DNA of 41,971 bases, from positions 1 through 41,971 of the IMG/VR virus record IMGVR_UViG_3300050015_000014, one strand, 5' to 3'. Each line of letters begins with the position of its first letter. Position 1 is the first letter of the stretch. The stretch comes from a virus (lineage: Duplodnaviria; Caudoviricetes). The notes beneath the pieces were generated by a model. It saw only the letters and a list, made by a program, of their open reading frames with translations, did no database searches and was not told the origin of the DNA. This document shows positions 953-27,972 of the stretch, in pieces. Both the position numbers and the translations under genes were made by a program.

Positions 953-1558
953 TTATCCTCTCGATCCGTATATTAATCCATCATCTCCAAGATATAAACT
1001 AAATTCTCCAAATGAATGTGATGCTTTAATTAACATCTCTTTAACATCTTCAAATTGTTCTTCTGATATACCATGATTCAATTCTTGATCTAATTCATTC
1101 ATTTCTCGGTCTTGAAACCCAGCACCATGACGATTTCTGGTTAACCAAAAATCATGTGCTGCCAAATCATCTGCCCATCCAGCTTTATGGTACAATTCGC
1201 TATATTTGTTATAGAAATCATTACAGTCAGATTTCATTTTTTCCAATGTTTCTGTTGAAAAATCATTAATATTATATGAAGTTTTTGTTGGACGAGGAGT
1301 TGGTTTTTCTGGAACTGGTTTCCATTCATCACCTTCTATATCATCATCCTCCTCTTCTTCGGGTTCTTCTTCGGGAGGAGCATTTATATTGTCAGTATCC
1401 GTCCATAAAGCAGTTATAATATATTCTTTAGTAAAATAATCCAAACCATTTACTACACTGTCTTTATTAATTTTTTTCATAATATTCATTCCGCCACGAG
1501 TATCTACTCCATGCGGAAGAATTTCATTTATTAAATCTTTTAATTTAATATATTTCAT
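953..1558 (-). CDS. Phage hypothetical protein with IKLKDLINE leader and HDFWLTRNRHGAGF motif
   Basis: 201-aa ORF abutting both neighbours; acidic/Pro linker; N-terminus MKYIKLKDLINE matches the shared leader. Confidence 0.75.
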   Translation of the reverse strand: MKYIKLKDLINEILPHGVDTRGGMNIMKKINKDSVVNGLDYFTKEYIITALWTDTDNINAPPEEEPEEEEDDDIEGDEWKPVPEKPTPRPTKTSYNINDFSTETLEKMKSDCNDFYNKYSELYHKAGWADDLAAHDFWLTRNRHGAGFQDREMNELDQELNHGISEEQFEDVKEMLIKASHSFGEFSLYLGDDGLIYGSRG

Positions 1559-2031
1559 TACGATTGTCTTTCTACTACATCAACTTTTGATAATCTGGTA
1601 TAATGACAATTTATAATAATTGAAAAACTATTATCGGGTTGTCCTCCAAGAAATTGTTCTTGAACAACATCATCAATTTCATGATAACGTTCATTGAAAA
1701 ATATCAAATCGCCAGAACTTGGAAATAAATTAATTGCCTGTAAATCTTTTTCCATGAATTTAAATACTACATTTTGTTTTCTATCTGGACCAAAATCGTC
1801 AGCATCATTAGCAATTTCCGATCTATCAATATAAGCCAGAATATCAATTCCAGGATAAAACGTTTTTCCAATGGATGGTTTACTTTCCCCATAAATATTG
1901 GTTTGAGTATTCTCTGCTGAAAATTTAAAAATCGTAACTTCGGTTTGAATAATATCACCCAATAATTCATTATTTATACCATTGATAAATGACATATCTC
2001 TGTCCGAAAAATATCTTCCATTGCGTGACAT
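1558..2031 (-). CDS. gp14: T4 gp14-like neck / head-completion protein
   Basis: Likely start ATG 2031 (MSRNGRYF), 1 nt after the upstream stop. Motifs TNIYGES, DDFG, PSSGDLIFFNERYHEID; located between gp13- and gp15-like genes. Confidence 0.7.
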   Translation of the reverse strand: MSRNGRYFSDRDMSFINGINNELLGDIIQTEVTIFKFSAENTQTNIYGESKPSIGKTFYPGIDILAYIDRSEIANDADDFGPDRKQNVVFKFMEKDLQAINLFPSSGDLIFFNERYHEIDDVVQEQFLGGQPDNSFSIIINCHYTRLSKVDVVERQS

Positions 2032-2032
2032 A

Positions 2033-2491
2033 TTATTTCTTACTGTGTAAGGAAACAAGTTCATTCGCCAACTCGAGTACTTGTTGTACATTATCCCCTA
2101 TATCGTCGCCCGAGTCCATTACACCTTGAAGTAAGTCGATTATCTTATTACCAATTTGTAATTCACGACTTTCTTCTGGATTTGACGTATTATATTCTGG
2201 ATTAGATACTTCCGTCTTTACAAATTTTTGATTACATTCATCATTTTCATATCCAAATTGGGATGCTAAATTTTGTGCTTCTTGTAATGCACATTTATCT
2301 GCTTGTGAAATACTTTTGATATATCCACGTCCAACGTTTTGTAATTTTTTATATGAAATCTCATTATGTCCAGAAGTAAATACTTTTTTAAGTCCTTCAC
2401 GAACAAGTTCAGATCCACTAATTACCTCGGTTACACTTTCGGTTATCAATTTAAATTGATTTCCATTTACATTTTGAAATATTTTTTTCAT
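2033..2491 (-). CDS. Hypothetical protein, possibly head-associated
   Basis: Probable start ATG 2491 (MKKIFQNVNGNQFKLITES), which avoids overlap with gp13. Confidence 0.65.
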   Translation of the reverse strand: MKKIFQNVNGNQFKLITESVTEVISGSELVREGLKKVFTSGHNEISYKKLQNVGRGYIKSISQADKCALQEAQNLASQFGYENDECNQKFVKTEVSNPEYNTSNPEESRELQIGNKIIDLLQGVMDSGDDIGDNVQQVLELANELVSLHSKK

Positions 2492-2507
2492 AATTTTATA
2501 AGTTATT

Positions 2508-3680
2508 TTATCCAATATAAATACACATTGGAACACGTTTAAGAGTTTCTTGCATTTGATCTGCCATAAGTGCCTGTTTTTCCATTTGACCAAATCTTCC
2601 AGCAGCTTCCAATTGTTCTTTGAGAGTATCTAATAAACGTTCTTTAGTTTGTTGTGCTTCGGCTCGAAGTTCGGCACCATCCATTGTCACTTCTCCTCCA
2701 GGAATTGGTAACGTTTGATATTTTTGACGAACAGAACCCAAAATTTCTTTACAAATTGCAAGAAAATAATCACGTATCCATTGTTTACCAGCATCATTTA
2801 TATCACTATATGAATGGTTTTTATATGGTATATTTGAAAAATCAGACGCAACTTTATGGTTCATTGGCGTCAACATTCCATCTTCAAATACTTCCGTATC
2901 ATTTGTATATTCCAACCAAAGTTTATATCCATATGTTGGTATTGGCATAATACGTAACTTATTGTTTTTAAGTTCAAATGAATATTGACTTTTACGAACC
3001 ATATCATTAAATTGAATTGCTTGCATACGCAATAAATCTTCAAATATAGGTGTCATAAGAAACTGAGTTGCAGGAGAGTATGCCCCAAATCCCATTTCTT
3101 GTAAAACATTTGAATAGCTCATTCCAGTCATTGAAAATGGATCATAAATACGTGCCGAGGCTGGGGGTCTATCATGAAATATACGACGAATTGTAATTCT
3201 ATCACAATTTTCTTTAGTATTTCCTATTAACGCTTGAAGATCATAATCTTGAACTCTATCCTGAATATCAATATATGTTTTTTTCCAATCTACATTTCCA
3301 CCAGTTCCTGCCTCCGTTCCATATCCTCTTGCCAATGCACATACAAATTGAACTCCAGTTCCCATAACATATCTGTTTTGAAGTCCGCCCATAGAATCTA
3401 TACGCTGTCCCTGCAAAGCAAACATGTTATTAATCATGTTATATTCATTTATTTTAGCATTATAAACATTAACTGCTTCTTCAAATGCTGCATAAAACTG
3501 AACATCTGACATTTCTATAGCAATAGATGGATATCCCAATCTTCTTGCCGCCCAAATCATTGCATTATAACAATCTATTAAAAATGATGGATCTGAATCA
3601 TATGATCCAAATGGTGTTTTCCCTGGAACTGATGAACCACTTCCTTGAAAACGTATAATATCTTGGTTTGATACGGCCAT
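2508..3680 (-). CDS. gp13: T4 gp13-like neck protein
   Basis: RRLGYPSIAIEM..QFYAAFEEAV and WIRDYFLAICKEILGSVRQKYQTLPIPGGEVTMDG are typical of gp13-family adaptors. Confidence 0.85.
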   Translation of the reverse strand: MAVSNQDIIRFQGSGSSVPGKTPFGSYDSDPSFLIDCYNAMIWAARRLGYPSIAIEMSDVQFYAAFEEAVNVYNAKINEYNMINNMFALQGQRIDSMGGLQNRYVMGTGVQFVCALARGYGTEAGTGGNVDWKKTYIDIQDRVQDYDLQALIGNTKENCDRITIRRIFHDRPPASARIYDPFSMTGMSYSNVLQEMGFGAYSPATQFLMTPIFEDLLRMQAIQFNDMVRKSQYSFELKNNKLRIMPIPTYGYKLWLEYTNDTEVFEDGMLTPMNHKVASDFSNIPYKNHSYSDINDAGKQWIRDYFLAICKEILGSVRQKYQTLPIPGGEVTMDGAELRAEAQQTKERLLDTLKEQLEAAGRFGQMEKQALMADQMQETLKRVPMCIYIG

Positions 3681-3707
3681 AAAATTTATTAAAATAATTG
3701 TCTAATC

Positions 3708-3759
3708 AATAAATATAGAAAGAAAACCCTTTACGTCAAATCCCATATATTTATTTATG
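3708..3759. promoter_or_regulatory. Divergent putative late-promoter region (TATTTAT on both strands)
   Basis: TATTTATT on the minus strand (3715-3708) ahead of gp13; TATTTATT/TATTTATG on the plus strand (3748-3759) ahead of the 3795 cassette. Confidence 0.5.
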
Positions 3760-3794
3760 TCCAATTCTTTACATAAGAAAGTATATGCATTTAT

Positions 3795-5108
3795 ATGTTT
3801 CCAATTATTAACTATAGAAGTTTTTTTAATGAAGATGACACCAAATATTGGGGCGAAGAAGCTGCTGGGTGTATTTTTGTTGCAAAAGACACGGGAAGAA
3901 TACTTCTGGCACACCGAAGTGCCAAAGTTGAATTTGAACCCAATACGTGGGCAACGTGGGGTGGTAAAATTGATAATGGAGAATCGCCCAAAGATGCCGT
4001 CGAACGTGAAATTGAAGAAGAGACTGGATTTAACGGAAAATATAAAATTTCATTATTATATGTTTATAAAGATGGAGATTTTAGTTATCACAATTACTTA
4101 ATAGCGGTTCCATTTGAATTTCAACCAGAATTAAACTGGGAAAACAACAATGCTGCTTGGGTTGAATATGGTGATTGGCCAACCCCTCTACATTTTGGAT
4201 TAAAAGCATTAATTGAACACGCTGGTAATAAAATAAAAAATGTTGTTGATCTAATTAAAAAAAGAAAAGAAAAAATGGTAGAAGTTGCGGACGTTCCTCC
4301 TGCAATAGTTCAACCGTCAAATCCATCTCAAAATCCAACTAAAACAATAAATCAACAACAATTAAAAGATGCATATGTAGTTGCTGCTACCTTATGGGGA
4401 GAAGCGAGGGGAGAAGGAATAGATGGAATGCAGGCAGTATTAAATGTTGTTATGAACAGAACCAAAGGAAATTTTGATAAAGCAAAAGATGCTGTTCTTA
4501 AACCAAAACAATTTTCTATGTGGAATAATGTTAAAAATCCAGAAAAAGTTTCATTGGAATTAGCACAAAAACAACGTGGTGATAAAACATATATGGCTGC
4601 TATTAAATTAGTAGATGCTGCTATGAAAGGAAATTTACCAGATATTACAAATGGAGCAACATTTTATTATAATCCTAAAAAAGCAAATCCATCGTGGGCA
4701 AAAAGTATGATTAAAACGAAATCCATTGGAAACCACGATTTTTTAAAATTACCTTCCAAAAAACAAATAAAAGAAGAAATAGATAATATAGAAATTATTA
4801 ATCAAGGATTGATAGATGATGACATATATGGATATGAATTAAAATCCCCATATTCTTATTTAAGATATGGACACGAACCTTCTTCAAAAACGTATTATAT
4901 TTTAAACATTGGAACACCCAAAGAAGAAGACAAACACAAGGGATATGCCTCCCAACTATTAAATAAATTATTTAAAATAATATCCGATTCTAGAGGAAAT
5001 ATTGATGCTGGATCTTTTACAACGTCTGGTCAAGATTTTATAAAACCAGTAATAGACAGATTATCTAAACAGTTTGGAGTTAGAATAGTTCAAGGGAAAG
5101 AATGGTAA
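3795..5108 (+). CDS. Three-domain protein: Nudix hydrolase + SleB/Hydrolase_2 cell-wall hydrolase + GNAT-like domain
   Basis: Nudix box GGKIDNGESPKDAVEREIEEETG; SleB motifs TLWGEARGEG..GMQAVLNVVMNR, QFSMWN, GATFYYNP, IGNHDF; C-terminal KHKGYASQLL resembles the GNAT acetyl-CoA motif. Confidence 0.85.
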   Translation: MFPIINYRSFFNEDDTKYWGEEAAGCIFVAKDTGRILLAHRSAKVEFEPNTWATWGGKIDNGESPKDAVEREIEEETGFNGKYKISLLYVYKDGDFSYHNYLIAVPFEFQPELNWENNNAAWVEYGDWPTPLHFGLKALIEHAGNKIKNVVDLIKKRKEKMVEVADVPPAIVQPSNPSQNPTKTINQQQLKDAYVVAATLWGEARGEGIDGMQAVLNVVMNRTKGNFDKAKDAVLKPKQFSMWNNVKNPEKVSLELAQKQRGDKTYMAAIKLVDAAMKGNLPDITNGATFYYNPKKANPSWAKSMIKTKSIGNHDFLKLPSKKQIKEEIDNIEIINQGLIDDDIYGYELKSPYSYLRYGHEPSSKTYYILNIGTPKEEDKHKGYASQLLNKLFKIISDSRGNIDAGSFTTSGQDFIKPVIDRLSKQFGVRIVQGKEW

Positions 5109-6746
5109 ATGATTAAACTAAAATCAATCCTAACTGAAAATACCAATAAATCATTCATCGTTTATCACGGCACTGATATTAAATTTAATAAGTTTAATCT
5201 TAATAAATCTGCCCAAGGTATTATATGGTTTACATCTGATAAAGATAAAATTTTAAAAGGTGAAGCAGGTGCATCTGGAAAAGGATATATTGTTACTGCA
5301 CAAGTAACCATTAACAATCCCGCCGAATGGAATGAATACCAACAATATATGTTGGGGCAACTAAAAAATATGGGGTATGATGGTGTAATTTTACCTGAAA
5401 ATAATGAGTTTGATTGTTTTGTATTCTCATTAAAACAAATAAAAATATTAAAAGTTGACAAAATACAACCCACAAACATTGATGAAGCAAAAAAATTAAA
5501 TTTGGATAATAAAGAAGATGCTGCCGAATATTTTATCCGTCAATCTTGGAAACTTATGCCACCAAAAGATAGATATGATGAATATCAATTTTTTCTATGG
5601 GCGGATAATGAGTCAAATTTACAAGATATAAAAGAAAAAATTGCACAAAAACTTTTTCCCAACGATGATTCATACATTGAGAAATTTGATGATATAATAT
5701 CCGATAAGTTAGATGTGCTCAATAAAGAGAAAACAAATAGATTATCAAAAAAAATAAATCCAAATGACCCGTTGGCAATTCTAAAATCTGTTGTTACTGG
5801 AAAAACTTATGAGGGTGCTAAACAATCGCTTTTAAAAAATTCTATTGGAGGTGCAATATATAAAGGTGGTAAGATAACGGATGAAGAAGCAGATACTGTA
5901 TTTAATCGTCTATATAGAAGTGCAATGGGTGAAACGATGTATAATCTCAATTCAGAAAATAGATATGGAAGATTATCAGATTTACGCAGAAATTCAAACT
6001 CCAAAGATTTTGAAGTTCGATATATGAACGATTTTATAGATCATTATGCTGGTCATAATGCAGACAGATTCGCAGATAAAGTTAAAGTTTATCGTGGAGT
6101 AAATAATCCACACGTTCCAATACGTCCAGGAGATTTTATTACATTCGATAAAGATTATGCTGCTTCATATAAAAGAGGTAAATATGGAACGGTAATAGAA
6201 GATATTTTAAATTCCAAAGATTTAATTGTATATATAATAAATCGTGAAAGTACCGAATTAGTGTATTGGCCAGAAGGACATCAAATTAAAAAATATACTG
6301 GAGAAATACCAACATTTAAACAATTTTTTGCTCAAGCAAATTATACTGGATTCCCCGACTCAATACAAGAAACTTATTATAATAAACTGTCAGATGATGA
6401 ACATGATGATTTAGCAAATACATATTTTTCAATTGGACAAGATGAAAATGTAGATGATAGTTTTTGTTGGATTTGGGATTGGTCTTCTCTATCAATAAAA
6501 ACAAAACAAGGTGGAACTCATGCTTGTAATTTTGGATATAATACAAAGGACCACACTTATAGTGGTTGGTATGATCCAGATAAAAATATTATATCTATTG
6601 TATTCCCCGATAATGAACTTAGAAAACTTGGTGATAGAAAACCTACCGAAGATGATATTCCACAACAAGTATATAAATCTTTAATAAGTAAATTTTCTCA
6701 TTCAATGCCAGAACCAAAATTTGTAGTATTTGAAAATAAAATATGA
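5109..6746 (+). CDS. Polyvalent protein with two ADP-ribosyltransferase-like domains and further unknown domains
   Basis: Domain 1: VYHGT..FNKF..IWFT..GYDGVI..VFSLKQIK. Later domain: KVYRGV..IRPGDFIT..YA..Y..ELVY. Leader MIKLKSILTE. Confidence 0.7.
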   Translation: MIKLKSILTENTNKSFIVYHGTDIKFNKFNLNKSAQGIIWFTSDKDKILKGEAGASGKGYIVTAQVTINNPAEWNEYQQYMLGQLKNMGYDGVILPENNEFDCFVFSLKQIKILKVDKIQPTNIDEAKKLNLDNKEDAAEYFIRQSWKLMPPKDRYDEYQFFLWADNESNLQDIKEKIAQKLFPNDDSYIEKFDDIISDKLDVLNKEKTNRLSKKINPNDPLAILKSVVTGKTYEGAKQSLLKNSIGGAIYKGGKITDEEADTVFNRLYRSAMGETMYNLNSENRYGRLSDLRRNSNSKDFEVRYMNDFIDHYAGHNADRFADKVKVYRGVNNPHVPIRPGDFITFDKDYAASYKRGKYGTVIEDILNSKDLIVYIINRESTELVYWPEGHQIKKYTGEIPTFKQFFAQANYTGFPDSIQETYYNKLSDDEHDDLANTYFSIGQDENVDDSFCWIWDWSSLSIKTKQGGTHACNFGYNTKDHTYSGWYDPDKNIISIVFPDNELRKLGDRKPTEDDIPQQVYKSLISKFSHSMPEPKFVVFENKI

Positions 6747-7780
6747 TCAAACTGAAATCCATATTAGAAAATGTAGATGAGATCCAAGCATATCATGGTA
6801 CTCCTCATAACATACAAGGTGGATTTAAACTACAAAAAGTGGGTAGTGGCGAAGGTTCTCAAGTATTCGGATGGGGGTTATATTTTTCTGAAAACCCCGA
6901 AGTAGCAAATGCATATAAAACTGGTCTTGCCAAATATACATTGGATGGAGAAAATATCTATGATTATTTTAAAAAACAAAATTATCCTGATAGTGCAATG
7001 GATTTGGCACATAAGAAAAAAATAACAATAGATGCCGCTGTAGATGAATGGAATAAAATGGTTCCAACAATGTTAATGTTGGATTATATTCATACATATG
7101 GTGATAATGCCGAGTATATGTTAAGCACAAAACATTATCAATCATCCATCGACTTATTACACACTCTTGAAAAATCTGGAAGATTAAAAAAACAAAGTAA
7201 TTTATATACTGTAGATATAGATGTAAATTTAGATACTTTGTTGGATTGGAATGAACCATTAAAGTCCCAATCTTCATATGTTCAGAAACATATACGAAGA
7301 ATACTACCCAAAACAAAACATCCAAAAATTCTTAAATCTGAACCAAATCCACATACTGAATATGGTGGGGAAAATTATAAATGGATAATTATTGCAAAAA
7401 CGCCATATGGTGAATCGACGTTTCATGGAAAAGATGAGAATGATACTTTGGACGCCATTGAAAAATACACTAAAGAAGAAAATGAAAAGTTTGATGATAA
7501 AGGCGGGGATTATATTTATCATTATATACAACATAGAGGAGATCCAAAAAAACAATCTTGGACGAATTCATTATATGTATCATCAATGATATTATTAAAA
7601 TTAGGAATTCCAGGAATAAAATATTTGGATAAGTTCTCAAGAAAACTTAATAGGGGAACTTATAATTATGTTATTTTTGACGAATCCAAAATAAAAATCA
7701 TTGCTGCTAATGGAATTTCAATATCTCCAAAACAGGCAGAACAAGATGATTTAATAATGAAAATAAATTCAAATGATTAA
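6743..7780 (+). CDS. ADP-ribosyltransferase-like protein of the polyvalent-protein type
   Basis: AYHGTPH..F..VGSGEGSQVFGWGLYF, NLYTVDI..LLDW, GIPGIKYLD..SR..GTYNYVIFDE. Leader MIKLKSILE. Confidence 0.7.
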   Translation: MIKLKSILENVDEIQAYHGTPHNIQGGFKLQKVGSGEGSQVFGWGLYFSENPEVANAYKTGLAKYTLDGENIYDYFKKQNYPDSAMDLAHKKKITIDAAVDEWNKMVPTMLMLDYIHTYGDNAEYMLSTKHYQSSIDLLHTLEKSGRLKKQSNLYTVDIDVNLDTLLDWNEPLKSQSSYVQKHIRRILPKTKHPKILKSEPNPHTEYGGENYKWIIIAKTPYGESTFHGKDENDTLDAIEKYTKEENEKFDDKGGDYIYHYIQHRGDPKKQSWTNSLYVSSMILLKLGIPGIKYLDKFSRKLNRGTYNYVIFDESKIKIIAANGISISPKQAEQDDLIMKINSND

Positions 7781-9659
7781 ACTTACACATTTATTGGGGG
7801 ATAAATATTATAGGATGATGAGTATTGACAAATCCTATAGATGGAGTAGATTAAACGAATCTGTTAAAAAAGATGCTCCTCCAGTTATTTTAGGAGCAAT
7901 TTCATCTTATGGTGAAATTAAAGCAGTCGCTGGTATGGATGATAATTCAAAACATCCACCAGAATGGAGATCATATGATAAATGGAGATATGTTCCTGAT
8001 ATTGAATATTTGAATTTTTGGGAAACTCCTAGTGATAAAGAAAAAGAGTTAGTAAAAGATTATTTGGAAAGTCGTGGATATCCAGTAAAATATTTTAATG
8101 TTTATACTGCAAAACCTATTGAAGAAGAATTAGTTATGGAAGCATCAAAAGATAAAGAAGCATTGGATTTTTTAAAGAAAATGGTTCAGATTGGGCCATT
8201 TAAAAATAAAGTATTTCTCGCTGGTGGGGCAGTAAGAGATATGGAATTGGGGAAAACTCCAAAAGATTTGGACGTTACCGTTATAGGTGATGTTAATGGA
8301 GGACTGAATTTTGCAATTTGGCTCGCAAAACAAATGGGTAATTACAAAGGACCATCCAACCCATTGCCTCCCCCTCCACATAATGTAGAAGTTGATTCTA
8401 GAGGTGTACCCTCTTTTAGTGAAGATGCTGATGCGTTGGGAGCATACTTAGAAGTTTATAATAATTATTATTCACAGTTTTCAAATCCAGTATTATTTCC
8501 TAAGTTTGGAACCGCAAAAGTAAGTTTAAGTGGACAGCACAATGGGGTTTCACTTGATGGGATGGATGTTGAGGCAGTTGCTTCTCGTAAAGAAGTGTAC
8601 ACTCCTGGTTCTAGGAAACCTCAAGTATTTCCTGGAACATTGGAAGATGATGTACTTAGACGAGATTTTACTACCAATAGTCTTTTAATGGATTTGACCA
8701 CGGGAGAAGTACTGGATTTAACTGGACATGGAAAAGAAGATATAAAATTAGGAATTCTTCGCACAACGTCAAATCCAGAGGTAATCTTTAGAGAAGATCC
8801 CTTGCGCATGATGCGTGCGGTAAGATTTATGGTTCAGAAAGGATGGAAAATAGATCCAACCACAGAAGAAAGTATTCGTAAAAATGCCGAATGGTTAAAA
8901 CATATCTCTAAAGAACGTATTCGTGACGAACTTAGCAAAATGTTAGTAACATCTAATCCTGAAGGAGCCATACGAAAATTACGTGATTTAAATATGCTTC
9001 CGTTTATTGCTCCCGAATTACAGCAAGCAATTGGAATGACTCAGAATGTACATCATACTCATGATGTATTTGATCATACAATGGAAGTATTAAAAAATAC
9101 TAATCCTGAACTTGTTCAGAGATTAATGGCATTATTCCATGATATTGGAAAAATAGCAACTCGTTCGGAAACACCAACGGGAGTGCATTTCTATGGGCAT
9201 GAAGATGCTGGTGAAGATATTGTTGACAATATATTGCGAAATTTAAAATACCCAGTTGAAATAATTCAGGCAGTAAAACAGGGGGTTAAAAATCATATGC
9301 GTCTGAAACAGGGTGGTGATAATGCAATCAAATTATCTGATAAATCATTGCGCAAATTTAAAATTGAACTTGGTGATAATTTGGAGAATGTTTTGAACTT
9401 AATCCATTCGGATAATATTGCTCACGCTTCAGCGTCTAGTATGCCGAATCAGATAGATATTGTTCGTAAACGTCTTAAATCACTTGATGTACAGGTGAAA
9501 AAACCAAATTTACCTATTAATGGTAATGATATTATTTCAATGGGTGTTCCCGCTGGTAAACGAGTTGGGGAAATATTAGCGGTTATTACTGACGCATGGT
9601 TTGAAAACCCCAATCTAACAAGAGAAGATGCAGTTTCTATAGTACAGAGAATGATATGA
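7773..9659 (+). CDS. cca: Class II CCA tRNA nucleotidyltransferase with HD domain and ~120-aa N-terminal extension
   Basis: FLAGGAVRD..PKDLDV, RRDFTTNSL, EDPLRMMRAVRF, ISKERIRDEL; HD domain HHTHDVFDHT, LFHDIGK, HFYGHE; C-terminal PINGNDII..G..VGEIL. Confidence 0.92.
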   Translation: MIKLTHLLGDKYYRMMSIDKSYRWSRLNESVKKDAPPVILGAISSYGEIKAVAGMDDNSKHPPEWRSYDKWRYVPDIEYLNFWETPSDKEKELVKDYLESRGYPVKYFNVYTAKPIEEELVMEASKDKEALDFLKKMVQIGPFKNKVFLAGGAVRDMELGKTPKDLDVTVIGDVNGGLNFAIWLAKQMGNYKGPSNPLPPPPHNVEVDSRGVPSFSEDADALGAYLEVYNNYYSQFSNPVLFPKFGTAKVSLSGQHNGVSLDGMDVEAVASRKEVYTPGSRKPQVFPGTLEDDVLRRDFTTNSLLMDLTTGEVLDLTGHGKEDIKLGILRTTSNPEVIFREDPLRMMRAVRFMVQKGWKIDPTTEESIRKNAEWLKHISKERIRDELSKMLVTSNPEGAIRKLRDLNMLPFIAPELQQAIGMTQNVHHTHDVFDHTMEVLKNTNPELVQRLMALFHDIGKIATRSETPTGVHFYGHEDAGEDIVDNILRNLKYPVEIIQAVKQGVKNHMRLKQGGDNAIKLSDKSLRKFKIELGDNLENVLNLIHSDNIAHASASSMPNQIDIVRKRLKSLDVQVKKPNLPINGNDIISMGVPAGKRVGEILAVITDAWFENPNLTREDAVSIVQRMI

Positions 9660-10147
9660 TTAAACTAAAATCACTTTTAAAAGAAGATTCTGGAGGATAT
9701 GAATTTGTTGGATTCCATCGTCAACAACACGCCAGACCTTCTAGTAGAGATGATGTGTTTTTAGTATCCAAAGGCAATGGGGGGAATTATTATGGTAAAG
9801 AGTACTTCATAGAAATATTAGAATCATTATATAATAATGATAGAAACGAAGCAGCGCAACTAGGATGGATGGATTATGATTGGTCAAATGTTTATTCTGA
9901 TGATTATGAAGAAATGCAATCTAAAGTATCTGACTGGTTAAATGGAAAAGGATATAGATGGATATTTGTTACCGAATCCAGACCCCACGATATTGAAGGA
10001 TATGGAAAATATATATATAAAATATTCTTTAAACCATCAGATATTCTCCATGTGTTTGATGATCCTTTTGGTGCAAATGATATTGCATATGCATATGTAT
10101 ATAATATAAAAAATCCACCACGATTTGAAAAATATGATCAAACTTAA
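9656..10147 (+). CDS. Hypothetical protein with MIKLKSLLKE leader, possibly divergent ART fold
   Basis: ATGA-coupled to cca. The strand pattern VGFH...WIFVT...YGKYIYKI only loosely resembles ART folds. Confidence 0.65.
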   Translation: MIKLKSLLKEDSGGYEFVGFHRQQHARPSSRDDVFLVSKGNGGNYYGKEYFIEILESLYNNDRNEAAQLGWMDYDWSNVYSDDYEEMQSKVSDWLNGKGYRWIFVTESRPHDIEGYGKYIYKIFFKPSDILHVFDDPFGANDIAYAYVYNIKNPPRFEKYDQT

Positions 10148-11219
10148 ATTTATGCTGAGTGAAGGTGTTCGACTTGATTTTATAAATAATAAAATACGAG
10201 CACTGGAAGATGAATGGGATAAACTTGATTCTCAAGGAAGTGGATTTTCACGTCAACAAGAAATTGCAAAAGAAATAACAACATTAAGAAACGAGAAACA
10301 AAGTTGGGAAGATTATTATAAAATACATAATGGATCTTTAACAGAAGATACAAATAATAATTTATCAACCGAAGTTAAAAACTTAGAAACTCAATTAATA
10401 TCTGAGTTTCCCCAAATAGATATATTACAATTATATCTTAGAGTAAATGGAAGTTTGTATATTGGAAATATTAAAATAAAAAAAGAATTTCGTGGGCAAG
10501 GAATTGGAAGACAAATTATAAATAGAATTAAAAAATTTGCAGATAATCATGGATTAATAATTTCACTTACACGGGAATCAGAACCCGAGTATAAAGAAAA
10601 ACTGAGAAAATTTTATAAATCAGCAGGATTTATAGATAATAAAGGTAGAAATAGAGACGACTCTTTATCTAGTATGTTTGGGAAATCCATGTACAGGAAA
10701 CCTAATGTGAATGAAGAATCCAATAATAAAATAGAGGTTCCAGAAGAACCAGGAACAGTTTCCATTCCATCAAACTATATTAGATTATATCATTATACAA
10801 AAGCAACTGATATGGACAAAATAAGAAAAGAAGGATTGAAATTATCAAATGCTAGAGGACATACATATGGAGAACCTGATGTTATATGGTCTTCTACTTA
10901 TAAACCAGAAAGATATCCATTTGTAGAATTTGCTGTTGCAATTAATGATCCAAGAATTTCCAGAGATGCTAATATAATTGATAGGGAAACTCCCACAGAA
11001 GTAATGAATAAAAATTTACACATTACATTTCGTGGAGATATATTACCATCAGAATTCATAGCAATACATGAAGGTTGGCATAAACACTATAGATATATAA
11101 TTAATGAAAAAGATGTTGTTGAAGAAGTCCTTAGTGGAAAACTTGATTATTTAATAAATGACAAATTTCCAGATGAAGCTAAAGCAATTTTAGCAATAAA
11201 ACAAAACTTTGGAAAATAA
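10134..11219 (+). CDS. GNAT acetyltransferase + ART/Tpt1-like domain fusion
   Basis: Probable start ATG 10134 (MIKLKFMLSE). GNAT: IKKEFRGQGIGRQII..LRKFYKSAGF. Second domain: RLYHYT..IRKEGL..VIWSS. Confidence 0.75.
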   Translation: MIKLKFMLSEGVRLDFINNKIRALEDEWDKLDSQGSGFSRQQEIAKEITTLRNEKQSWEDYYKIHNGSLTEDTNNNLSTEVKNLETQLISEFPQIDILQLYLRVNGSLYIGNIKIKKEFRGQGIGRQIINRIKKFADNHGLIISLTRESEPEYKEKLRKFYKSAGFIDNKGRNRDDSLSSMFGKSMYRKPNVNEESNNKIEVPEEPGTVSIPSNYIRLYHYTKATDMDKIRKEGLKLSNARGHTYGEPDVIWSSTYKPERYPFVEFAVAINDPRISRDANIIDRETPTEVMNKNLHITFRGDILPSEFIAIHEGWHKHYRYIINEKDVVEEVLSGKLDYLINDKFPDEAKAILAIKQNFGK

Positions 11220-11222
11220 AGT

Positions 11223-12779
11223 TTATCTAGTTTTTGTAAAATTAACAGGATCAATAACTGCTTGCGGTTTGCCTTGAACACTTTTTGGATATCCTTTATC
11301 GTCATATACTCTTTGATGGTATGGTTGACGAATATATTCTTGAAGTTTTGGATGTTCCAATGCTTCTTTAAAACTATCCTTCCAACTTTTTTGAACTGGA
11401 TTGCAAGCATTGGACAATTGAACATCTCCATGAATTTCACTTGCTAAAGATTTCCAAGTAGTAAATGCTCTACGTCTATGTTTCTCTCGGTCTTCACCGT
11501 GTTTGTTATGATAATGAACTTCAAATTTTAATTTACTATTATCTTCAAATACCGCAATAATATGACTGTTTCCCTCATAGAGTCTATATTCTTTGTTTAA
11601 ATGATGATAATCTTCCATTAGATCACGTTTAGGATCTTTCTCTACATCATCTTCACACATTACATCAAATGATGGGTTTGATTTAGCAAATCTATCTAAT
11701 ATTTCATATAATCTACCAACTCCTTCTTGAAGACTACCAGTTCTACTATCTGAATATGTATCTCCTGGTTCTGGAGCATCGGTTGTGGTTGGTGTCTCTG
11801 GAGTTATTGCTTGTTTTGATGATGGTTTAGTTACAGGATGTTGTGGTTTATCTTCTGGTTCTGGTGCATCTGGTTCAATTTTTGTTTTTAAATATTCTGA
11901 TAATGCACATAAATGTTTGCAAAGTCCTACTCCAAAATCCCCAACTCCTCCCTGAGAACGTGGTTTCCATTTTTGACCATTGTTATCATTTCCATGTCTC
12001 CAGTCTGGAGTTCTTCCAATTCTTCCTACATCTGCCTTTGCATTGTTATATGCATATCTAAATCTATAATCTGGACAATCACAATCAACCATACAATCCA
12101 AATCATCCGCACTATCTTTTTTAGATACATCATCTTTAAAGAATTGAACATACCCATGCCAAGGATTCCCCGTTGTAGATGGATTTGATTTATATCTAAA
12201 TGTCCATGCTTCTTGTCCATCTATTGTAATTACTTTTATTGGTCTAACATTAACATCATGTTTACCACGCTCCTGTCTTCCCGATTCACTTCCCGCTAAT
12301 AAAGCTCTGAATGACATTCTTTCTGTCAATAATTGTGTAAGAAGATTTGAAAATGATAATTTAGTTTCAATTAAATCATCGTGAGGAATATCAGCACCAG
12401 TATAACCAAACTGTAGTTTTAAATATGGTTTTTCAGGAACCGTTCCTGACAAAATCTTATTCCCCATTATTTCATATCCACCAGTAGAAGTATCATATAA
12501 CCATCTTCTTTGATAACGAGTTAGTTTTTTCCACGGTATGTTTAAAGTATCAAAATATAAAACACCTTTTGAAGGATATATCATAATCCTAACCCATCCC
12601 ATATTATATATCTTGTCGGAAATTTGAATTCCATGTTTAAGTGATTGTGGGGATTCATCATTATTCCATGGTATTTTTAAAAATCTTGCTGCCCAATCCG
12701 TATGGGTATCATTTACATAATGACATGTGCCACTTGGATCTAACCATCCCGCTACAAAACCGTTTACAGATTTACTCAT
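11223..12779 (-). CDS. Multidomain protein with SWIM zinc finger
   Basis: VDCDCPDYRFRY...GLCKHL (CxCx(n)CxH); N-terminal GWLDPSG..H..GWVRI domain; Pro/Thr linker. Confidence 0.7.
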   Translation of the reverse strand: MSKSVNGFVAGWLDPSGTCHYVNDTHTDWAARFLKIPWNNDESPQSLKHGIQISDKIYNMGWVRIMIYPSKGVLYFDTLNIPWKKLTRYQRRWLYDTSTGGYEIMGNKILSGTVPEKPYLKLQFGYTGADIPHDDLIETKLSFSNLLTQLLTERMSFRALLAGSESGRQERGKHDVNVRPIKVITIDGQEAWTFRYKSNPSTTGNPWHGYVQFFKDDVSKKDSADDLDCMVDCDCPDYRFRYAYNNAKADVGRIGRTPDWRHGNDNNGQKWKPRSQGGVGDFGVGLCKHLCALSEYLKTKIEPDAPEPEDKPQHPVTKPSSKQAITPETPTTTDAPEPGDTYSDSRTGSLQEGVGRLYEILDRFAKSNPSFDVMCEDDVEKDPKRDLMEDYHHLNKEYRLYEGNSHIIAVFEDNSKLKFEVHYHNKHGEDREKHRRRAFTTWKSLASEIHGDVQLSNACNPVQKSWKDSFKEALEHPKLQEYIRQPYHQRVYDDKGYPKSVQGKPQAVIDPVNFTKTR

Positions 12780-12812
12780 AATATTTCAACATATAAATAT
12801 CAAATTTTAATA

Positions 12813-13487
12813 TTAAAACTTCTCTTTATACTGTTTCTCTTTAATCCATTTCCACCCAAGAGTAAGAAATTCCGCATACTCTTCATGTTTTTGTCCATAC
12901 CATCCACATGCAAACGGAGGATGTGACTCAATAAGTTCAATATCTCCATTTTCAAATGATCCAAAATCCGCAGTCCCACACCAATTTTCTGGCCATTGTA
13001 TATCAAGACTTGGTGCATTAATAGGTTCATCATCATCTCCCCAATACCAATATGCTCCTATAAGTTTACCATATGCAATATAATATCTCCATTCATTTGT
13101 AAATTTTACTATATCAGAACATATAAATGGTCCTTTCTTTTTACCATGATATTTTCCAGATGTTATAAAACCAGTAAATCTCTTATGTCTATCAGATGGT
13201 TTTATAAATACTTTTTCAAGTGGCCATTTGTCTTGTGTCCATACGTTTCTAGTAACCCATTTACTTAAAAACTTTGGAAAATAATCAGGAGTAATAGTCT
13301 CTCCAATAACTTCAGATACCCAAGGAACAGTTCCACTCGGAACCCATCCTTCAGGTACATCTTTTGATCTATATATCATTTTTACTGGAATTTGTTGTAA
13401 TGCTCCAACAATAGATAAACTTTTACCTTCCCAATCAGTTAGAGTTTTCTGTATAGCAAATCCGTTACAATAATTTTTCCAATTCAT
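12813..13487 (-). CDS. ATP-grasp protein (R2K clade / DUF4343-like)
   Basis: VFIKPSDRHKRFTG, NEWRYYI, ADFG..LIESHPPFACGWYG. Probable start 13487 by ATGA overlap. Confidence 0.75.
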   Translation of the reverse strand: MNWKNYCNGFAIQKTLTDWEGKSLSIVGALQQIPVKMIYRSKDVPEGWVPSGTVPWVSEVIGETITPDYFPKFLSKWVTRNVWTQDKWPLEKVFIKPSDRHKRFTGFITSGKYHGKKKGPFICSDIVKFTNEWRYYIAYGKLIGAYWYWGDDDEPINAPSLDIQWPENWCGTADFGSFENGDIELIESHPPFACGWYGQKHEEYAEFLTLGWKWIKEKQYKEKF

Positions 13488-14308
13488 GATATCACATTCC
13501 ACTCTATCCAATCATTTTCAACAATTTCAGATAGTTTATTAACCACTTTATTTTTATCACACGCATACAATCCCGCTGAAGAAAATGAATTGATTTCTAA
13601 TAACCAATAATTTCCATCACTATCTTGACAAATATCTATACAAAATATAGAATCTGGATAATATCCTATTTTTATAAGTTTATTACATAGTTCTATAGAT
13701 TCTCTCGGAACACTTGGAGTAACTACAGATTTTCCATCTTGTCTATATGTTGATTGTGCTATAATTTCTCCATCTTTAGATACTACAAACCTTCCCTCCC
13801 ATTGTATATTTTTAGGAGTAGATACTACAACCAAATCATGTTCTATAAATTTCTGTGCCTCACAAAATCTATCAATATCTCTTGTCTCTATTAATTTTGC
13901 TTGAAACGTTTTCTGTCCACTGTCGGGTCTTAAAAAAATATATCCTTCTTTTCCATATATATTTATAAAAAATTCTTTTTGTCTATGAAATTCTTTAAGT
14001 GAAATAATGGAATATTTATCATTAAATAAATACTCTCCAAAATGAGTCATGTATTTTGAACAAAGATACTTATCATTACTCCCATATGAAACTGGAAAAC
14101 AATGATGTAAATGTTGTTGTACGATTGCAGTCATATTTATAGATCCTAAAAATATAACTGGTTCTTTATCTGTATAACCATCCAACATTGAATATTTAAA
14201 ATCTCTCTTAATCTCTAATAAATCTCCACCCTGCTTCTTAATCTCTTTCACTAAATCCATATAGCTGGATTCATGTGTAAAATTTTCTACTATAAAACGT
14301 GTTTTCAT
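13484..14308 (-). CDS. ATP-grasp protein (R2K clade / DUF4343-like)
   Basis: IFLRPDSGQKTF, WEGRFVV, CIDIC..WLLEINSFSSAGLY. Confidence 0.8.
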   Translation of the reverse strand: MKTRFIVENFTHESSYMDLVKEIKKQGGDLLEIKRDFKYSMLDGYTDKEPVIFLGSINMTAIVQQHLHHCFPVSYGSNDKYLCSKYMTHFGEYLFNDKYSIISLKEFHRQKEFFINIYGKEGYIFLRPDSGQKTFQAKLIETRDIDRFCEAQKFIEHDLVVVSTPKNIQWEGRFVVSKDGEIIAQSTYRQDGKSVVTPSVPRESIELCNKLIKIGYYPDSIFCIDICQDSDGNYWLLEINSFSSAGLYACDKNKVVNKLSEIVENDWIEWNVIS

Positions 14309-14451: not shown

Positions 14452-14549
14452 AATTTATTTTTTTTACGATTCACCAAATACCACTCCAACGGTTCCCATA
14501 TAATAAAATAACATACTACTAAACCAATTATTATACAATCAAATATCAT
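14448..14549 (-). CDS. 33-aa putative membrane peptide
   Basis: MIFDCIIIGLVVCYFIIWEPLEWYLVNRKKNKL; ATGA-coupled at both ends; hydrophobic stretch followed by a basic tail. Confidence 0.55.
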   Translation of the reverse strand: MIFDCIIIGLVVCYFIIWEPLEWYLVNRKKNKL

Positions 14550-15310
14550 AATTTATTATCTCTTATTTTCTTTTTATAATATTTCACTGCCGTCATCCCT
14601 ATACTATATTTATCGGCAATATTTTTCATACTATACTTACCAGATTTTATATCTGTTATTACTAATGGTTTTATTTCCCTCATACGAGATTTAACTTCTG
14701 AAATTTTATCACGAGTTTTTTGTGGTGTAACCCCCTTTGGAACTCCTTTTTGACCATTATCATATATATGGTTTATATCTCTATTCATCAACATTGATCT
14801 TCGGTTATTAAACTTTTTCTTTCCTTCTCTTATACCACATCTATCAACAAACCATTCTAAAGTATATCGTCCAACTGCTTTGTTTTTCTGTTTTTGTATT
14901 GCTTCATCACTATGAGTTTTTCCAAACATTCCATTGTTTTCCCCGTGACTGACTATTTTCATTTTTTCTATGAAAGCATCTCTGTTTGGATTATATGTTA
15001 TATTATCCCCACCTTCGGCAACAGGACATATATTATATCCAATATTTCTTTCATAAGGTTTTAATGTATCTAAATAATATTGCTCTCGCTCAAACAATTT
15101 GATTTTATATGGTTCTACTACTTCAAGTATTGTAAATACAAATTTGTCCTCTCCGTGAGAATTCCACGAATGCTGTAGTTTAGGATTTATATGAATGTTA
15201 AGTGTTAATTCTCGTTTATGATCATACCATCGCTTATCAAAATTTTTAGCACTGCCGATGTAAAATTTTCCATTATCCATATTTGTTATCTTATATATTC
15301 CACTACTCAT
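14546..15310 (-). CDS. GIY-YIG homing endonuclease with NUMOD3-like repeat
   Basis: SGIYKITN..GKFYIGSA..R..H, REQYYLD, GYNI, GENNGMFGKTHS. Confidence 0.9.
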   Translation of the reverse strand: MSSGIYKITNMDNGKFYIGSAKNFDKRWYDHKRELTLNIHINPKLQHSWNSHGEDKFVFTILEVVEPYKIKLFEREQYYLDTLKPYERNIGYNICPVAEGGDNITYNPNRDAFIEKMKIVSHGENNGMFGKTHSDEAIQKQKNKAVGRYTLEWFVDRCGIREGKKKFNNRRSMLMNRDINHIYDNGQKGVPKGVTPQKTRDKISEVKSRMREIKPLVITDIKSGKYSMKNIADKYSIGMTAVKYYKKKIRDNKL

Positions 15311-15412: not shown

Positions 15413-17152
15413 TTAGACCTGATTTGTATCAGATACATATATAAGTCCGTAAAATTCGGGGCGTACAATTTTCTTTGCATACCTGGTCATGACACCCCGT
15501 CTCGGTGTGAAATTAACAGGATCATACACTAAAGGTGTCTGAATCAAAGGAATGTATGGAGCATACACTGCACCAGTTTCAAGGAAGTTATTTCCACGGA
15601 AACCGAGCAAGATCAAATTTTCTTGCATGTATGGATTTTTGTAAACTTGGAAGCGACTTGCGAAGCTACCAACTCTACTTACGCCCATTGCGAACTTAGC
15701 GGAATCACCATCGGTATTAACAACGAATCCAGGGATTGATTCCAAGATAGTTGCAACATCTGGTCCTACGACCATGAAGTTAGCACCACCACGGAGGGTC
15801 AATTGGTGAATTTTGTTAGATACTTTTTGGATCTTGTTACCAAGGGTTTGGTACCAAGTTGCTTTGGTGTAATATCCACCTGCGCCTGCGGTAACTTGAT
15901 CAACAACTTGATAGCTGTTAAGACCAGTCTTCATAATCTCACGATTAAGACGTGCGCTCCAACGTTCTTTGTTAATGTTTGGGGCATTAACAATAAGCAT
16001 GTCCAAGATTTCCAAGTCAATTTCCATGGAAACATATTCAGACAATAATGCTGTTAATTCTGCTTCAGCATCAACACTATGGTAAGCATTAAGATCTTGA
16101 GCAAGCTCAGGAGTCCATACTGCTTTCAATTTACGTGTTTTTGCGACGATAGGCTCAGAACGCAATTCAAGGTTGACTTCAGGAATACCGATATCCTTAT
16201 TCAATCCAGTATCCGTTGAACTAGATTTTCCAAGTTTATCTTCAAAGTCACCACGATTTTCTGGTGTAGGTTGCAAACTCAATACAACAGATGCAGTTGC
16301 TGCCCCTGCGGCCAACGCTGCCATATTTGCATTAGATGCAGAAACAACGAATGTTATCTCCTGTCCATTGATACGAGTAAACCCTGGAAAATACGTGACG
16401 AATGAGCCTGCGGTTCCAGCATTAACTGGAACGAAACTACGTGCTGCGCTATAATCAGGATACGATGAAGAAGCTGCTAATACTGTGGATTTAAGAGCAG
16501 ATGTAGTAAGAGTATATAAATACCCCGATGCTAATGATGAAGATATGTTTGATCCAACTGGGTCATTTGCATTACCAGTATCAAAGTTAATATCTGCAAT
16601 AGATGCTGTTCCAACACTAACGGTAAGGCCATTAATTGTTTGGTCATTGATTGTATAAGAATAACGACCAGGACCATATAAACCACCAACTGGAGCATTG
16701 GTTGAACCAAGTTTCCATTGACCATTTACATCATTACTACCACTAATCCCACCGAATAACGATGAATAGTTAGTTGCGGAGTCTGCTGAGAACGGTCCCG
16801 CATTTGTTCCATACTTGAAATCAAGATAGAAGACTAATCCACTAGGAAGATTCATTGGTTGAACCGAGACGAATTCCTTTGCGGCGATTTCAGCAAACAC
16901 ACGGCGAACTAGTGGGAGAGCTACCCCTGCCCATTGTTCTGAGTTGGTTTGAGTACCCGTTACTGAGGACTCTTCAATAAGTTGTTTTGCTTGGTTTTCA
17001 AGCAAGACTGACATATTAGATTTTTCCATGTCAGTCTTAAGTCCTTCAAGCAACCCAGTTTTGTCCCATTTAGAGACTAAACCACGGGTTTCCGCCATCA
17101 AGCGAGCTTGTGGATTAAGAGCATTTGTTAATAATTCTTTTACATTATCCAT
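15413..17152 (-). CDS. gp23: Major capsid protein (T4 gp23 family)
   Basis: LLENQ, LPLVRRVF, VSVQPMNLPSGLVFYL, AKTRKLKAVWTPELAQDLNAYH, YAPYIPL, FTPRRGVMTRYA. Confidence 0.97.
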   Translation of the reverse strand: MDNVKELLTNALNPQARLMAETRGLVSKWDKTGLLEGLKTDMEKSNMSVLLENQAKQLIEESSVTGTQTNSEQWAGVALPLVRRVFAEIAAKEFVSVQPMNLPSGLVFYLDFKYGTNAGPFSADSATNYSSLFGGISGSNDVNGQWKLGSTNAPVGGLYGPGRYSYTINDQTINGLTVSVGTASIADINFDTGNANDPVGSNISSSLASGYLYTLTTSALKSTVLAASSSYPDYSAARSFVPVNAGTAGSFVTYFPGFTRINGQEITFVVSASNANMAALAAGAATASVVLSLQPTPENRGDFEDKLGKSSSTDTGLNKDIGIPEVNLELRSEPIVAKTRKLKAVWTPELAQDLNAYHSVDAEAELTALLSEYVSMEIDLEILDMLIVNAPNINKERWSARLNREIMKTGLNSYQVVDQVTAGAGGYYTKATWYQTLGNKIQKVSNKIHQLTLRGGANFMVVGPDVATILESIPGFVVNTDGDSAKFAMGVSRVGSFASRFQVYKNPYMQENLILLGFRGNNFLETGAVYAPYIPLIQTPLVYDPVNFTPRRGVMTRYAKKIVRPEFYGLIYVSDTNQV

Positions 17153-24177: not shown

Positions 24178-24205
24178 AATATAACAGATTGTAGAATACT
24201 GTCAA
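24178..24205 (-). promoter_or_regulatory. sigma70-like promoter TTGACA-16-TATATT with extended TG
   Basis: -35 at 24205-24200, -10 at 24183-24178, ahead of ATG 24165. Confidence 0.65.
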
Positions 24206-27348: not shown

Positions 27349-27972
27349 TTATCCCAATTCCGTTAAAATATTTCTAATAATATCATCAGTACGTTCCCAT
27401 TTATTGGTTACTGGATTTCTTACAATACCTTCAGCAATAGGAACTTGTCCACTTGGAAACATAAATGCTCCTTGTGTTGATGGATTAGATACAAAATCAA
27501 ATGCGATTAATTCAAAATCATCACCGACAACTGCTGAGTTTTCAGAAATCTTTTTAAGGGTTCCAAGTCCACGACTAGAAATACCTAATTTAATACCGTT
27601 TCTAAAAAGTTCACGAAGAATGTTTCCATTTGGAGTTGTCAAAATTTCAACAGTTCCAATCAAATCATCACCTTGCCAATGCATCTCAACAACGTTATGA
27701 GATACGTTTTTAAGATTAACGACTGAAGATTCTGGATGGTCTAATTCACCCATTGCCCTACGATCGGCAATGAACGTTTGAGCATATTTTGCAGCTTCAC
27801 GTATTAAAATTTCATCAGGATAAATCCTACCATTTTGATTCTTTTTGCCTTTACGTTGCAAAACACCAGATACTTTAAATGGTTGATTTGGATGGTCGGA
27901 TGATTCTCTTAGCAGTCTGGGATCTGCTTCAAAAGTTATGCATTCTACTAAGAGTTTTTTATCTATGTTCAT
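27349..27972 (-). CDS. gp21: Prohead core protease (T4 gp21 family)
   Basis: NQNGRIYP, AMGELDHP, VSH, TPNGNIL, LGISSRGLG, FDFVSNPSTQGA. Confidence 0.96.
   Translation of the reverse strand: MNIDKKLLVECITFEADPRLLRESSDHPNQPFKVSGVLQRKGKKNQNGRIYPDEILIREAAKYAQTFIADRRAMGELDHPESSVVNLKNVSHNVVEMHWQGDDLIGTVEILTTPNGNILRELFRNGIKLGISSRGLGTLKKISENSAVVGDDFELIAFDFVSNPSTQGAFMFPSGQVPIAEGIVRNPVTNKWERTDDIIRNILTELG

Follow-up and report, generated by a model that had tools for sequence, protein, structure and literature searches.

Six plus-strand open reading frames (ORFs) abut or overlap in the 41,971-base virus record IMGVR_UViG_3300050015_000014 (here called the window; all coordinates are relative to its first letter): 3795-5108, 5109-6746, 6743-7780, 7773-9659, 9656-10147, and 10134-11219. 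This cassette lies between the neck gene gp13 and the head genes on the gp23 side, i.e. it is linked to the phage packaging genes. We consider it probable that its products are late-expressed cargo that is loaded into the prohead, where the prohead protease separates it into its individual modules; the freed modules would then probably be ejected. Such a packaged toolkit is likely because the N-terminal leader of the proteins matches the capsid-targeting sequence (CTS) of phage T4 in register and ends in a prohead-protease motif. Directly visible in the DNA are the leader, internal sites in the same register, fusion and fission of genes, variable gene content, and a shared upstream motif. The modules of the cassette and the predicted processing enzyme are listed below (ART, ADP-ribosyltransferase).

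3795..3833, plus: gene 1 leader MFPIINYRSFFNE, an aromatic variant in register with the T4 CTS (Y4, F7, hydrophobic 8, E10)
3834..4283, plus: Nudix hydrolase module (PF00293, E 3e-15), Nudix box intact, ending at predicted site MVE
4284..4775, plus: SleB-type cell-wall hydrolase (Hydrolase_2; PF07486, E 5e-19), ending at predicted site IKE
4776..5108, plus: GNAT-like module, weak assignment, kept in 26 of 30 relatives
5109..5138, plus: gene 2 leader MIKLKSILTE
5139..5486, plus: gene 2 ART-PolyVal (PF18760, E 1e-10), ending at predicted site IDE; stand-alone tagged gene in 3 loci
5487..6371, plus: gene 2 middle module, helical plus predicted ART-like (KptA-like), ending at predicted site IQE; 44 homologues
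6372..6746, plus: gene 2 orphan C-terminal module
6743..7780, plus: gene 3, leader MIKLKSILE and probable ART-PolyVal with a large insert
7773..7859, plus: gene 4 extended leader MIKLTHLLGD ... LNE29, with Asp at residue 10 and the first Glu site at residue 29
7860..8141, plus: gene 4 94-residue module, ending at predicted site VME; stand-alone or fused in relatives
8142..9659, plus: CCA-type tRNA nucleotidyltransferase and HD domain (CCA-HD); DxD, RRD, EDxxR, and HD motifs present
9656..10147, plus: gene 5, leader MIKLKSLLKE and predicted divergent ART-fold protein; 15 homologues, all starting M-I/F-K-L
10134..10346, plus: gene 6 leader MIKLKFMLSE and 61-residue module (likely coiled coil), ending at predicted site LTE
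10347..10715, plus: gene 6 GNAT acetyltransferase (PF13508, E 1e-8), ending at predicted site VNE; stand-alone tagged gene in relative locus L096
10716..11219, plus: gene 6 predicted ART-like (DarT-like) module; 470 relatives, including giant polyvalent proteins of other elements
27349..27972, minus: gp21-like S77 prohead protease (PF03420, E 3e-24), the predicted processing enzyme; His/Ser/Asp motifs present

The N-terminal leader

The seed pattern I-[KRS]-L-[KRSTQM]-x-[LI], in which Glu was not required, gave 197 matches among 1,579 ORFs (duplicates included), 113 of them unique. The consensus among relatives was M-I-K-L-K-x-L/I-L/I-x-E. In 98 of the 113 leaders, the first Glu was residue 9 or 10 (core position 8 or 9); the Glu background was 7.4%. 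Leu, Ile, or Val stood two residues ahead of this Glu (P3) in 99 of 106 leaders, and conservation ended at the Glu. Nudix, ART, GNAT, CCA, 2H phosphoesterase, DnaJ, and unknown proteins were found behind the 113 unique leaders. The first-pass annotation of the window had described all six genes as leader-tagged. Five of them do start MIKLx; gene 1 has a different, aromatic leader, YRSFFNE, and belongs to the description only as a variant. The start of gene 6 was placed by sequence reading at the ATG at 10134, not at the TTG at 10125, because the leader begins there.

T4 IPII and IPIII begin MKTYQEFIAE, as evident from the fetched record. MIKLKSILTE carries hydrophobic residues at 4, 7, and 8 and Glu at 10, which is the register of the T4 CTS. 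According to passages of PMC9026906, residues 4 and 7 of the T4 CTS target the protein and residues 8 and 10 govern its processing. The gp21 cleavage site there is L/I-X-E, and a protein with Asp at position 10 is still targeted but no longer cut. Gene 4, with Asp10 and a later LNE29, is the exception to Glu10. Aromatic residues at 4 and 7, a feature of IPII and IPIII, were confined to the gene 1 class; the MIKLK class has Leu and Leu/Ile at these positions. The S77 protease has an N-terminus that itself ends in LLVE at residue 10, and LL-M/V-E was present near residue 10 in four of four homologues. The predicted scaffold and capsid (L-M-A/T-E21) also have matching N-terminal sites. The system thus resembles the T4 CTS, which is carried by IPI-IPIII and Alt and removed by gp21, in its 10-residue tag with hydrophobic residues 4, 7, and 8 and Glu10, in the unrelated cargo behind one tag, in the S77/gp21-type protease of the same genome, and in the presence of an ART among the cargo. 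It differs in that the leader is aliphatic and basic (MIKLK) and in that many enzymatic cargoes stand in one late-type cassette beside gp13.

A score matrix was trained on 75 leaders derived from the loci, and a score of 8 or more was taken as passing. One of 2,587 internal-Met controls passed. Of the ORFs, those passing numbered 9 of 40 in the window and 14/103, 6/91, 8/71, 4/82, and 5/75 in the five relative contigs. The scoring genes were cassette, head-region, and scattered genes; no PHROG-labelled tail, baseplate, or replication gene passed (91 proteins, two contigs labelled). Outside the cassette, the leader was present at 953-1558 (minus), 20224-20550 (plus), and 26114-26755 (minus) and, more weakly, at 26757-27344 (minus); a close variant is possible at 27969-28823 (minus). 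These genes lie mostly near the protease and scaffold genes, and the one at 26114 has a sigma-70 region 4-like domain. Two further sets of N-termini were seen in passing. Similar hydrophobic-x-Glu N-termini occur near the terminase and capsid genes of two cultured relatives, Flavobacterium phage immuto (L038; 2262, 7632, and 8633) and L037 (21741). A second shared-leader family consists of nine tandem small genes starting MK(I/T)RxxFVSNSS(S/T)S between the protease and scaffold genes of the relative G001 (83972-87626; L043 15972-19626).

Predicted internal cut sites, fusion, and fission

Modules that stand behind the leader in one phage and inside a longer protein in another were searched for [LIVM]-x-E at the projected leader end. 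An internal site was found within ±6 positions in 28 of 36 cases (about 14 module families), as compared with 7.5 ± 2.3 and a maximum of 16 for random positions in the same proteins. For the modules of the window (6 module families), a site was found within ±10 positions in 59 of 62 cases after removal of window self-matches and near-duplicates (null 17.1 ± 3.5, maximum 30), and two of the three misses were T-x-E. The CCA enzyme had a site in 45 of 45 internal copies (null 5.9 ± 2.3) and in 59 of 61 N-terminal copies; 13 of its 119 homologues lacked the anchor motif and were left out. In a separate database search with the gene 2 middle module (44 homologues), all 16 internal copies had the site and 23 of the 28 others started with one. 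The junction motif was likewise present in 12 of 14 SleB homologues, 20 of 20 GNAT-like modules, and 7 of 7 copies of the gene 4 94-residue module, and the junction E|G of the gene 6 61-residue module was in exact register in six of six internal copies.

As a control, the gene 6 ART-like module was examined inside 79 proteins without this leader (from 150 relatives). Here, 13 of 79 had a site (null 19.9 ± 3.9). The junction motif thus goes with the phage group and does not come with the domain. Where copies of this module stand alone elsewhere, they carry T4-type leaders (P0072, P0083, and P0153). Inside the cargo domains, L/I-x-E was depleted, with 89 occurrences observed versus 162 expected (observed/expected ratio (O/E) 0.55); the O/E was 1.18 in 236 other proteins and 1.0-1.3 for four control motifs. 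The predicted scaffold was dense in L/I-x-E (3.1 per 100 residues).

Relatives' loci were fetched in three sets (36 + 34 + 9), giving 37 gp13 groups including the window; many loci are incomplete, so that the following module counts are lower bounds. The Nudix gene was present in 30 other gp13 groups and was divergent from gp13 in all 31 locus rows having both; the Nudix module is the constant first module of the cassette. Among the 30 groups, at least 26 had the GNAT-like module, 19 SleB, 17 the CCA enzyme, 10 the gene 4 N-terminal module, 5 the coiled module, 3 the gene 6 ART-like module, and 2 the gene 2 ART, and none had the remaining window modules. Scanning of 113 proteins of relatives revealed 2H phosphoesterases, DnaJ, PARP/Tpt1-like domains, and a phage lysozyme as extra cargo; most of the proteins were without a Pfam match. 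The expectation that variable cargo would be found behind constant leaders was therefore borne out across the relatives' loci. The 2H phosphoesterase of one relative matched Acb1 with an E value of 5e-6, just below the cut-off; tagged 2H phosphoesterases with weak Acb1 similarity were seen at L029 1688-2551, L079 5851-6372, and L001 2609-5197. The first gene of L021 (7902-9896) has the phage lysozyme in the place of SleB.

In 5 of the 30 relatives, Nudix, SleB, GNAT, and further modules up to CCA form a single protein of 1,033-1,390 residues. A whole internal leader was kept in four fused proteins (L096, P0249, P0276, and P0317); a fifth pattern match was unrelated and was discarded. Within the window, four of the six cassette genes are polyproteins with internal cut motifs, and the chains encoded by genes 1, 2, and 6 each combine at least two enzymatic domains related to conflict, ART-PolyVal or GNAT among them. 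The idea that the toolkit consists of individually tagged modules in place of a single giant protein was hence not supported as worded. An ATGA stop/start overlap with the upstream gene was found for 42 of the 113 tagged genes; loss of the stop would turn a leader into a linker, and the overlap favours Ile at residue 2. Because of the fused relatives, the retained internal leaders, and the ATGA overlaps, tagged genes and polyproteins are interconvertible, and separate versus giant is a continuum. A scan of viral contigs with the Nudix module gave no matches.

A modular gene of the opposite strand that converges on the cassette is likely part of the same system.

11223..12779, minus: modular gene with internal LIE/LTE, LQE, and LME sites; homologues start with the leader

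A SWIM-like Cys/His motif in this gene is weak (E 0.12). In G004, the last module of the gene occurs on its own as a tagged gene.

Proposed timing and delivery, and competing explanations

Between gp13 and gene 1, two oppositely oriented copies of the same heptamer were found.

3709..3715, minus: TATTTAT facing gp13, a predicted element of a late promoter and one member of a conserved divergent pair
3748..3754, plus: TATTTAT facing the cassette, predicted late promoter element

All 31 locus rows, from 27 distinct contigs, had the divergent pair. TATTTAT corresponds to the T4 late consensus read from the opposite strand. Of the 24 window genes with a gap ahead of them, 12 are preceded by it, gp13 among these; in G004, it was seen before none of the six labelled replication genes. 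We infer that the cassette is transcribed late, from the divergent motif beside gp13. A sigma-70 promoter scan was uninformative (61 sites versus 56.8 expected). In the same region of relatives, a GC-rich hairpin was noted between the upstream motif and the Nudix start (L001 7470-7513, L021 9892-9934, and L010 9888-9935, minus). As a 5′ untranslated region hairpin, it was significant in two of eight folded sequences, received no support from consensus folding or pair counts, and was not stable in the window, so it was dropped. The gp13-Nudix spacer is expanded to 630-1,580 nucleotides in L012, L022, L087, L092, L100, and L105; the extra ORF in the L012 and L022 spacers resembles a homing endonuclease gene.

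In the proposed sequence of events, synthesis would occur late, from the divergent motif. Hydrophobic leader residues 4, 7, and 8 would bind the prohead core, so that loading is by tag, and the S77 protease would cleave after the Glu sites and free modules of 60-500 residues. The freed modules would probably be ejected into the next host, as IPI and Alt of T4 are (passages of PMC9958956 and PMC5512222). After delivery, SleB, or phage lysozyme in one relative, could aid the breach of peptidoglycan; CCA-HD could repair tRNA 3′ ends; Nudix, and in relatives the 2H phosphoesterases, could remove nucleotide signals or ADP-ribose; and the ARTs and GNATs could modify host targets. New cargo might be gained by leader addition, and neighbouring genes might fuse, with the leader decaying to an internal cut site. 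The relatives encode about 26-33 tRNAs. By a loose test, CCA appears to be encoded in most of these, so that repair is a likelier task for the CCA-HD enzyme than maturation.

Several points weigh against this reading. The MIKLK leader is aliphatic where the T4 CTS is aromatic. The leader also stands on head-region genes, whose products may belong to the core and be degraded instead of ejected. The cut motif is short and several matches fall within folded domains; the GNAT-like module is enriched in L/I-x-E (O/E 1.67), not depleted. The counts of internal sites come from related sequences and are not independent trials, and only the homologue counts test the cut-site idea, because the module boundaries in the window were chosen at Glu sites. 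In the window, the genes for capsid, scaffold, and portal have no TATTTAT within 50 nucleotides. Four of the five ART calls lie below curated or significance thresholds. Finally, SleB freed inside the head would still have to reach the periplasm. The Nudix homologue of a cultured phage (45%, no room for a leader) was unmarked in liquid chromatography-tandem mass spectrometry while its neighbours were marked, and it is too distant to weigh.

The tagged proteins might instead be loaded and cut in the prohead and serve as core filler or act in assembly, most modules staying behind or being cleared. The leader on head-region genes near portal, protease, and scaffold would fit such a role, as would the degradation of core proteins by T4 gp21 at multiple sites (passages of PMC9958956). 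We judge it unlikely, since the sites separate domains and are scarcer than expected inside most of these, the catalytic motifs of Nudix and CCA-HD are intact, and the cargo is variable and enzymatic, unlike a conserved scaffold.

An explanation that dispenses with packaging appeared improbable. [quoted passage not shown] The conserved residues 2-7 exceed what cleavage needs and match the T4 targeting positions, and T4 gp21 is active inside the completed prohead (passages of PMC9958956). The CCA enzyme, Nudix, and the ARTs could nevertheless all work in the infected cell, and passages of PMC7824862 describe jumbo-phage CCA enzymes as tRNA repair enzymes without mention of virions.

That the shared start is a DNA-level feature only, a recombination seed or a means of translation coupling with an incidental peptide, is very improbable and largely refuted as a sole explanation: the ATGA overlaps and the identical starts of 18-30 nucleotides within genomes speak for it, whereas all six Leu codons and both Lys and both Glu codons are used synonymously in the leader, and the Glu motif recurs in register within ORFs with unrelated flanks. 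The identical 18-mer that had been reported to open the genes at 5109 and 9656 is present. Identical leader DNA was found in 4 of 17 pairs within a genome versus 6 of 298 pairs between genomes (Fisher p 0.001); this excess within genomes fits local copying or codon bias. The proposal that the 18-mer seeds recombination is thus weakly supported, with the leader kept as protein and synonymous codons free to change.

Packaging and cleavage of tagged effectors, the reading we prefer, was compared with known systems. Multidomain architecture, the combination of ART-PolyVal with GNAT, and predicted packaging and delivery are shared with the polyvalent proteins (Iyer et al. 2017; passages of PMC5512222), and the gene 6 module is common to proteins of up to 3,673 residues. 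In contrast to polyvalent proteins, no processing peptidase domain was detected in the six proteins, the head protease being predicted to act in trans, and unrelated proteins with the gene 6 module are without the Glu junction motif. MPTase, MuF, and LPD are hallmark domains of polyvalent proteins, common though not universal; by Pfam, none was found in the six proteins, nor among the families shown for the 113 relatives' proteins. The terms SleB and CCA are absent from the main text of PMC5512222.

Like the ejection proteins of phiKZ, 201phi2-1, and SPN3US, of which passages of the reports describe many head proteins cut after Glu (there S/A/G-X-E), the proteins of the cassette carry Glu sites. 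For giant phages, identical N-termini on diverged paralogues have been proposed as targeting signals (passages of PMC5694885). Lineage and P3 residue differ from those phages, whose propeptides are long; passages of PMC10052503 and PMC5694885 report terminal propeptides only, with no report there of several enzymes from one chain. In the corresponding passages on T4, phiKZ, and SPN3US, terminal propeptides are removed or the core is degraded, whereas the predicted cut motif here also lies between enzyme domains. With the jumbo-phage CCA enzymes (passages of PMC7824862; RaK2 gp031, PMC3622015) the cassette shares a class II nucleotidyltransferase with HD domain and tRNA-rich relatives. Unlike these, 104 of 106 close homologues here carry a leader or an internal Glu site, which points to virion carriage, undescribed for jumbo-phage CCA enzymes in the passages at hand. 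The available text of the CBB and RaK2 papers holds no passage that places a Nudix or CCA enzyme in virions. A literature search, mostly of titles and abstract openings and covering few subscription journals, gave no description of the leader or of cutting between domains into several enzymes.

Taken singly, the elements of this reading are known: CTS tags, head proteases specific for Glu, polyvalent proteins, and CCA enzymes of phages. The broader claim, for which we see the case as evenly balanced, would be that a widespread clade of T4-like phages of about 350-400 kb uses the prohead protease for polyprotein processing. One tag would load a chain of unrelated enzymes, and cutting of this chain would yield effectors that are delivered separately. 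Among them would be a CCA/HD enzyme carried in the virion for tRNA repair, a muralytic enzyme for entry, and members of several new ART families, and the leader would be a handle with which to list a large, mostly unannotated day-zero anti-defence library. If true, the T4 capsid-targeting tag, so far found on a few small internal proteins, would also serve a modular library of effectors, and the head protease would perform virus-style polyprotein processing. The origin and resolution of polyvalent proteins would be explained by fusion of tagged genes whose leaders decay to cut sites, and candidates for injected counter-defence proteins could be filtered simply by the leader. The cut positions are predicted exactly and are testable.

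Module assignments and genomic setting

Matches above the Pfam cut-off were obtained for Nudix, SleB, the gene 2 ART-PolyVal, the gene 4 CCA head and HD domain, and the gene 6 GNAT. The domain list of the first-pass annotation accordingly held for Nudix, SleB, CCA-HD, one GNAT, and one ART; its four other ART-like domains and its second GNAT were weak. PADLOC yielded nothing beyond generic Nudix and HD matches. The best NCBIfam match of gene 4, TIGR02692, reached 233.6 bits, under its cut-off of 438.8, and the sequence is compatible with either CCA-adding or A-adding activity. The gene 2 C-terminal module had no homologue in the fetched loci and no meaningful Pfam match, and a PDB sequence search with the gene 4 N-terminal module alignment returned nothing meaningful.

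The gene 3 ART-PolyVal scored 27.8 bits (E 5e-6), below the PF18760 cut-off of 31.2. The gene 5 model had a predicted local distance difference test score (pLDDT) of 79, and its best VIA match was AvrPphF ORF2 (Z 5.6; root mean square deviation (rmsd) 3.4 over 92 residues). The nine matches ranked after it (Z 2.8-3.6) likewise belong to families with ART or NADase folds. The gene 2 middle model (pLDDT 92) resembled KptA/Tpt1 in its C-terminal part (VIA Z 5.1; rmsd 2.6 over 68 residues), where R, T, and E are conserved; across the module, R-G, F-V-T, and E are conserved. Foldseek with the gene 5 and gene 2 middle models gave no match at E ≤ 0.001. The gene 6 C-terminus reached an ESM value of 0.93 to a DarT/PARP cluster, and its PDB match to DarT1 had E 0.071. 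The ART-like modules of genes 2 and 6 did not align with each other. The C-terminal GNAT-like module of gene 1 had no match itself, and 3 of 26 aligned members matched PF13508; its best GNAT-family E value was 2.5e-4, with an hhalign probability of 32%. When PDB sequences were searched with alignments of the gene 6 ART-like module (4 rows) and of the gene 1 GNAT-like module, no meaningful match emerged. Because Z values of 5-6 are in the range that VIA calls common, gene 3, gene 5, the gene 2 middle module, and the gene 6 C-terminus as ARTs, and the gene 1 GNAT, are left as predicted. Just before the gene 6-type ART-like module, proteins without the MIKLK leader (P0080, P0085, P0089, P0130, P0140, P0141, P0146, and others) often carry an HPRDxxG(K/R/Q)F-type motif, possibly another linker or targeting signal.

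The neighbouring head genes are on the minus strand; portal and terminase genes were also found in the window.

2508..3680, minus: gp13-like head-tail adaptor (phrog_211, E 3e-13)
15413..17152, minus: Gp23 capsid

Strand skews flip over about 4-11 kb, matching the plus-strand coding there, and the GC content of the cassette (28-36%) is similar to that of the remaining window. Gp23 best matched Microcystis phage Mel-JY01 (51.5%), LR756508 from an uncultured 484-kb phage (50.4%), and RM378 (41.7%); Flavobacterium phage immuto gave 64.9%, but over half the protein only. By these closest capsid records, the phage would be Far-T4-like, in the RM378 neighbourhood; the Far-T4 group is described in passages of PMC4360716. 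Five relative contigs of 76-121 kb were rated 22-34% complete and homologous cargo occurs on contigs of up to 401 kb, so genomes of this clade probably measure about 350-400 kb. A search for a cultured member of the clade or its proteome found none, and host assignment via capsid matches in binned genomes was set aside as likely binning noise.

The window DNA was matched in five peat metagenomes, two of them possibly its source, with no RNA data set among the matches. One contig was identical to the window over 1500-13500 and is possibly the source itself. No module swap was seen when contigs of near-identical strains were compared. One contig of run X3 (depth 5) is without 160 nucleotides of gene 3 (window 7279-7440), which is either a broken allele or an assembly error. 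Among the head genes without leader were two R2K-clade ATP-grasp genes, an RlaP nucleotidyltransferase, and a DUF5662 gene (12813-14308, 23443-24165, and 25149-25679, all minus). Four homing-endonuclease-like genes are also situated in the head region (14546-15310, 19663-20211, 21934-22716, and 24202-25068), and three of them are directly preceded by TATTTAT.

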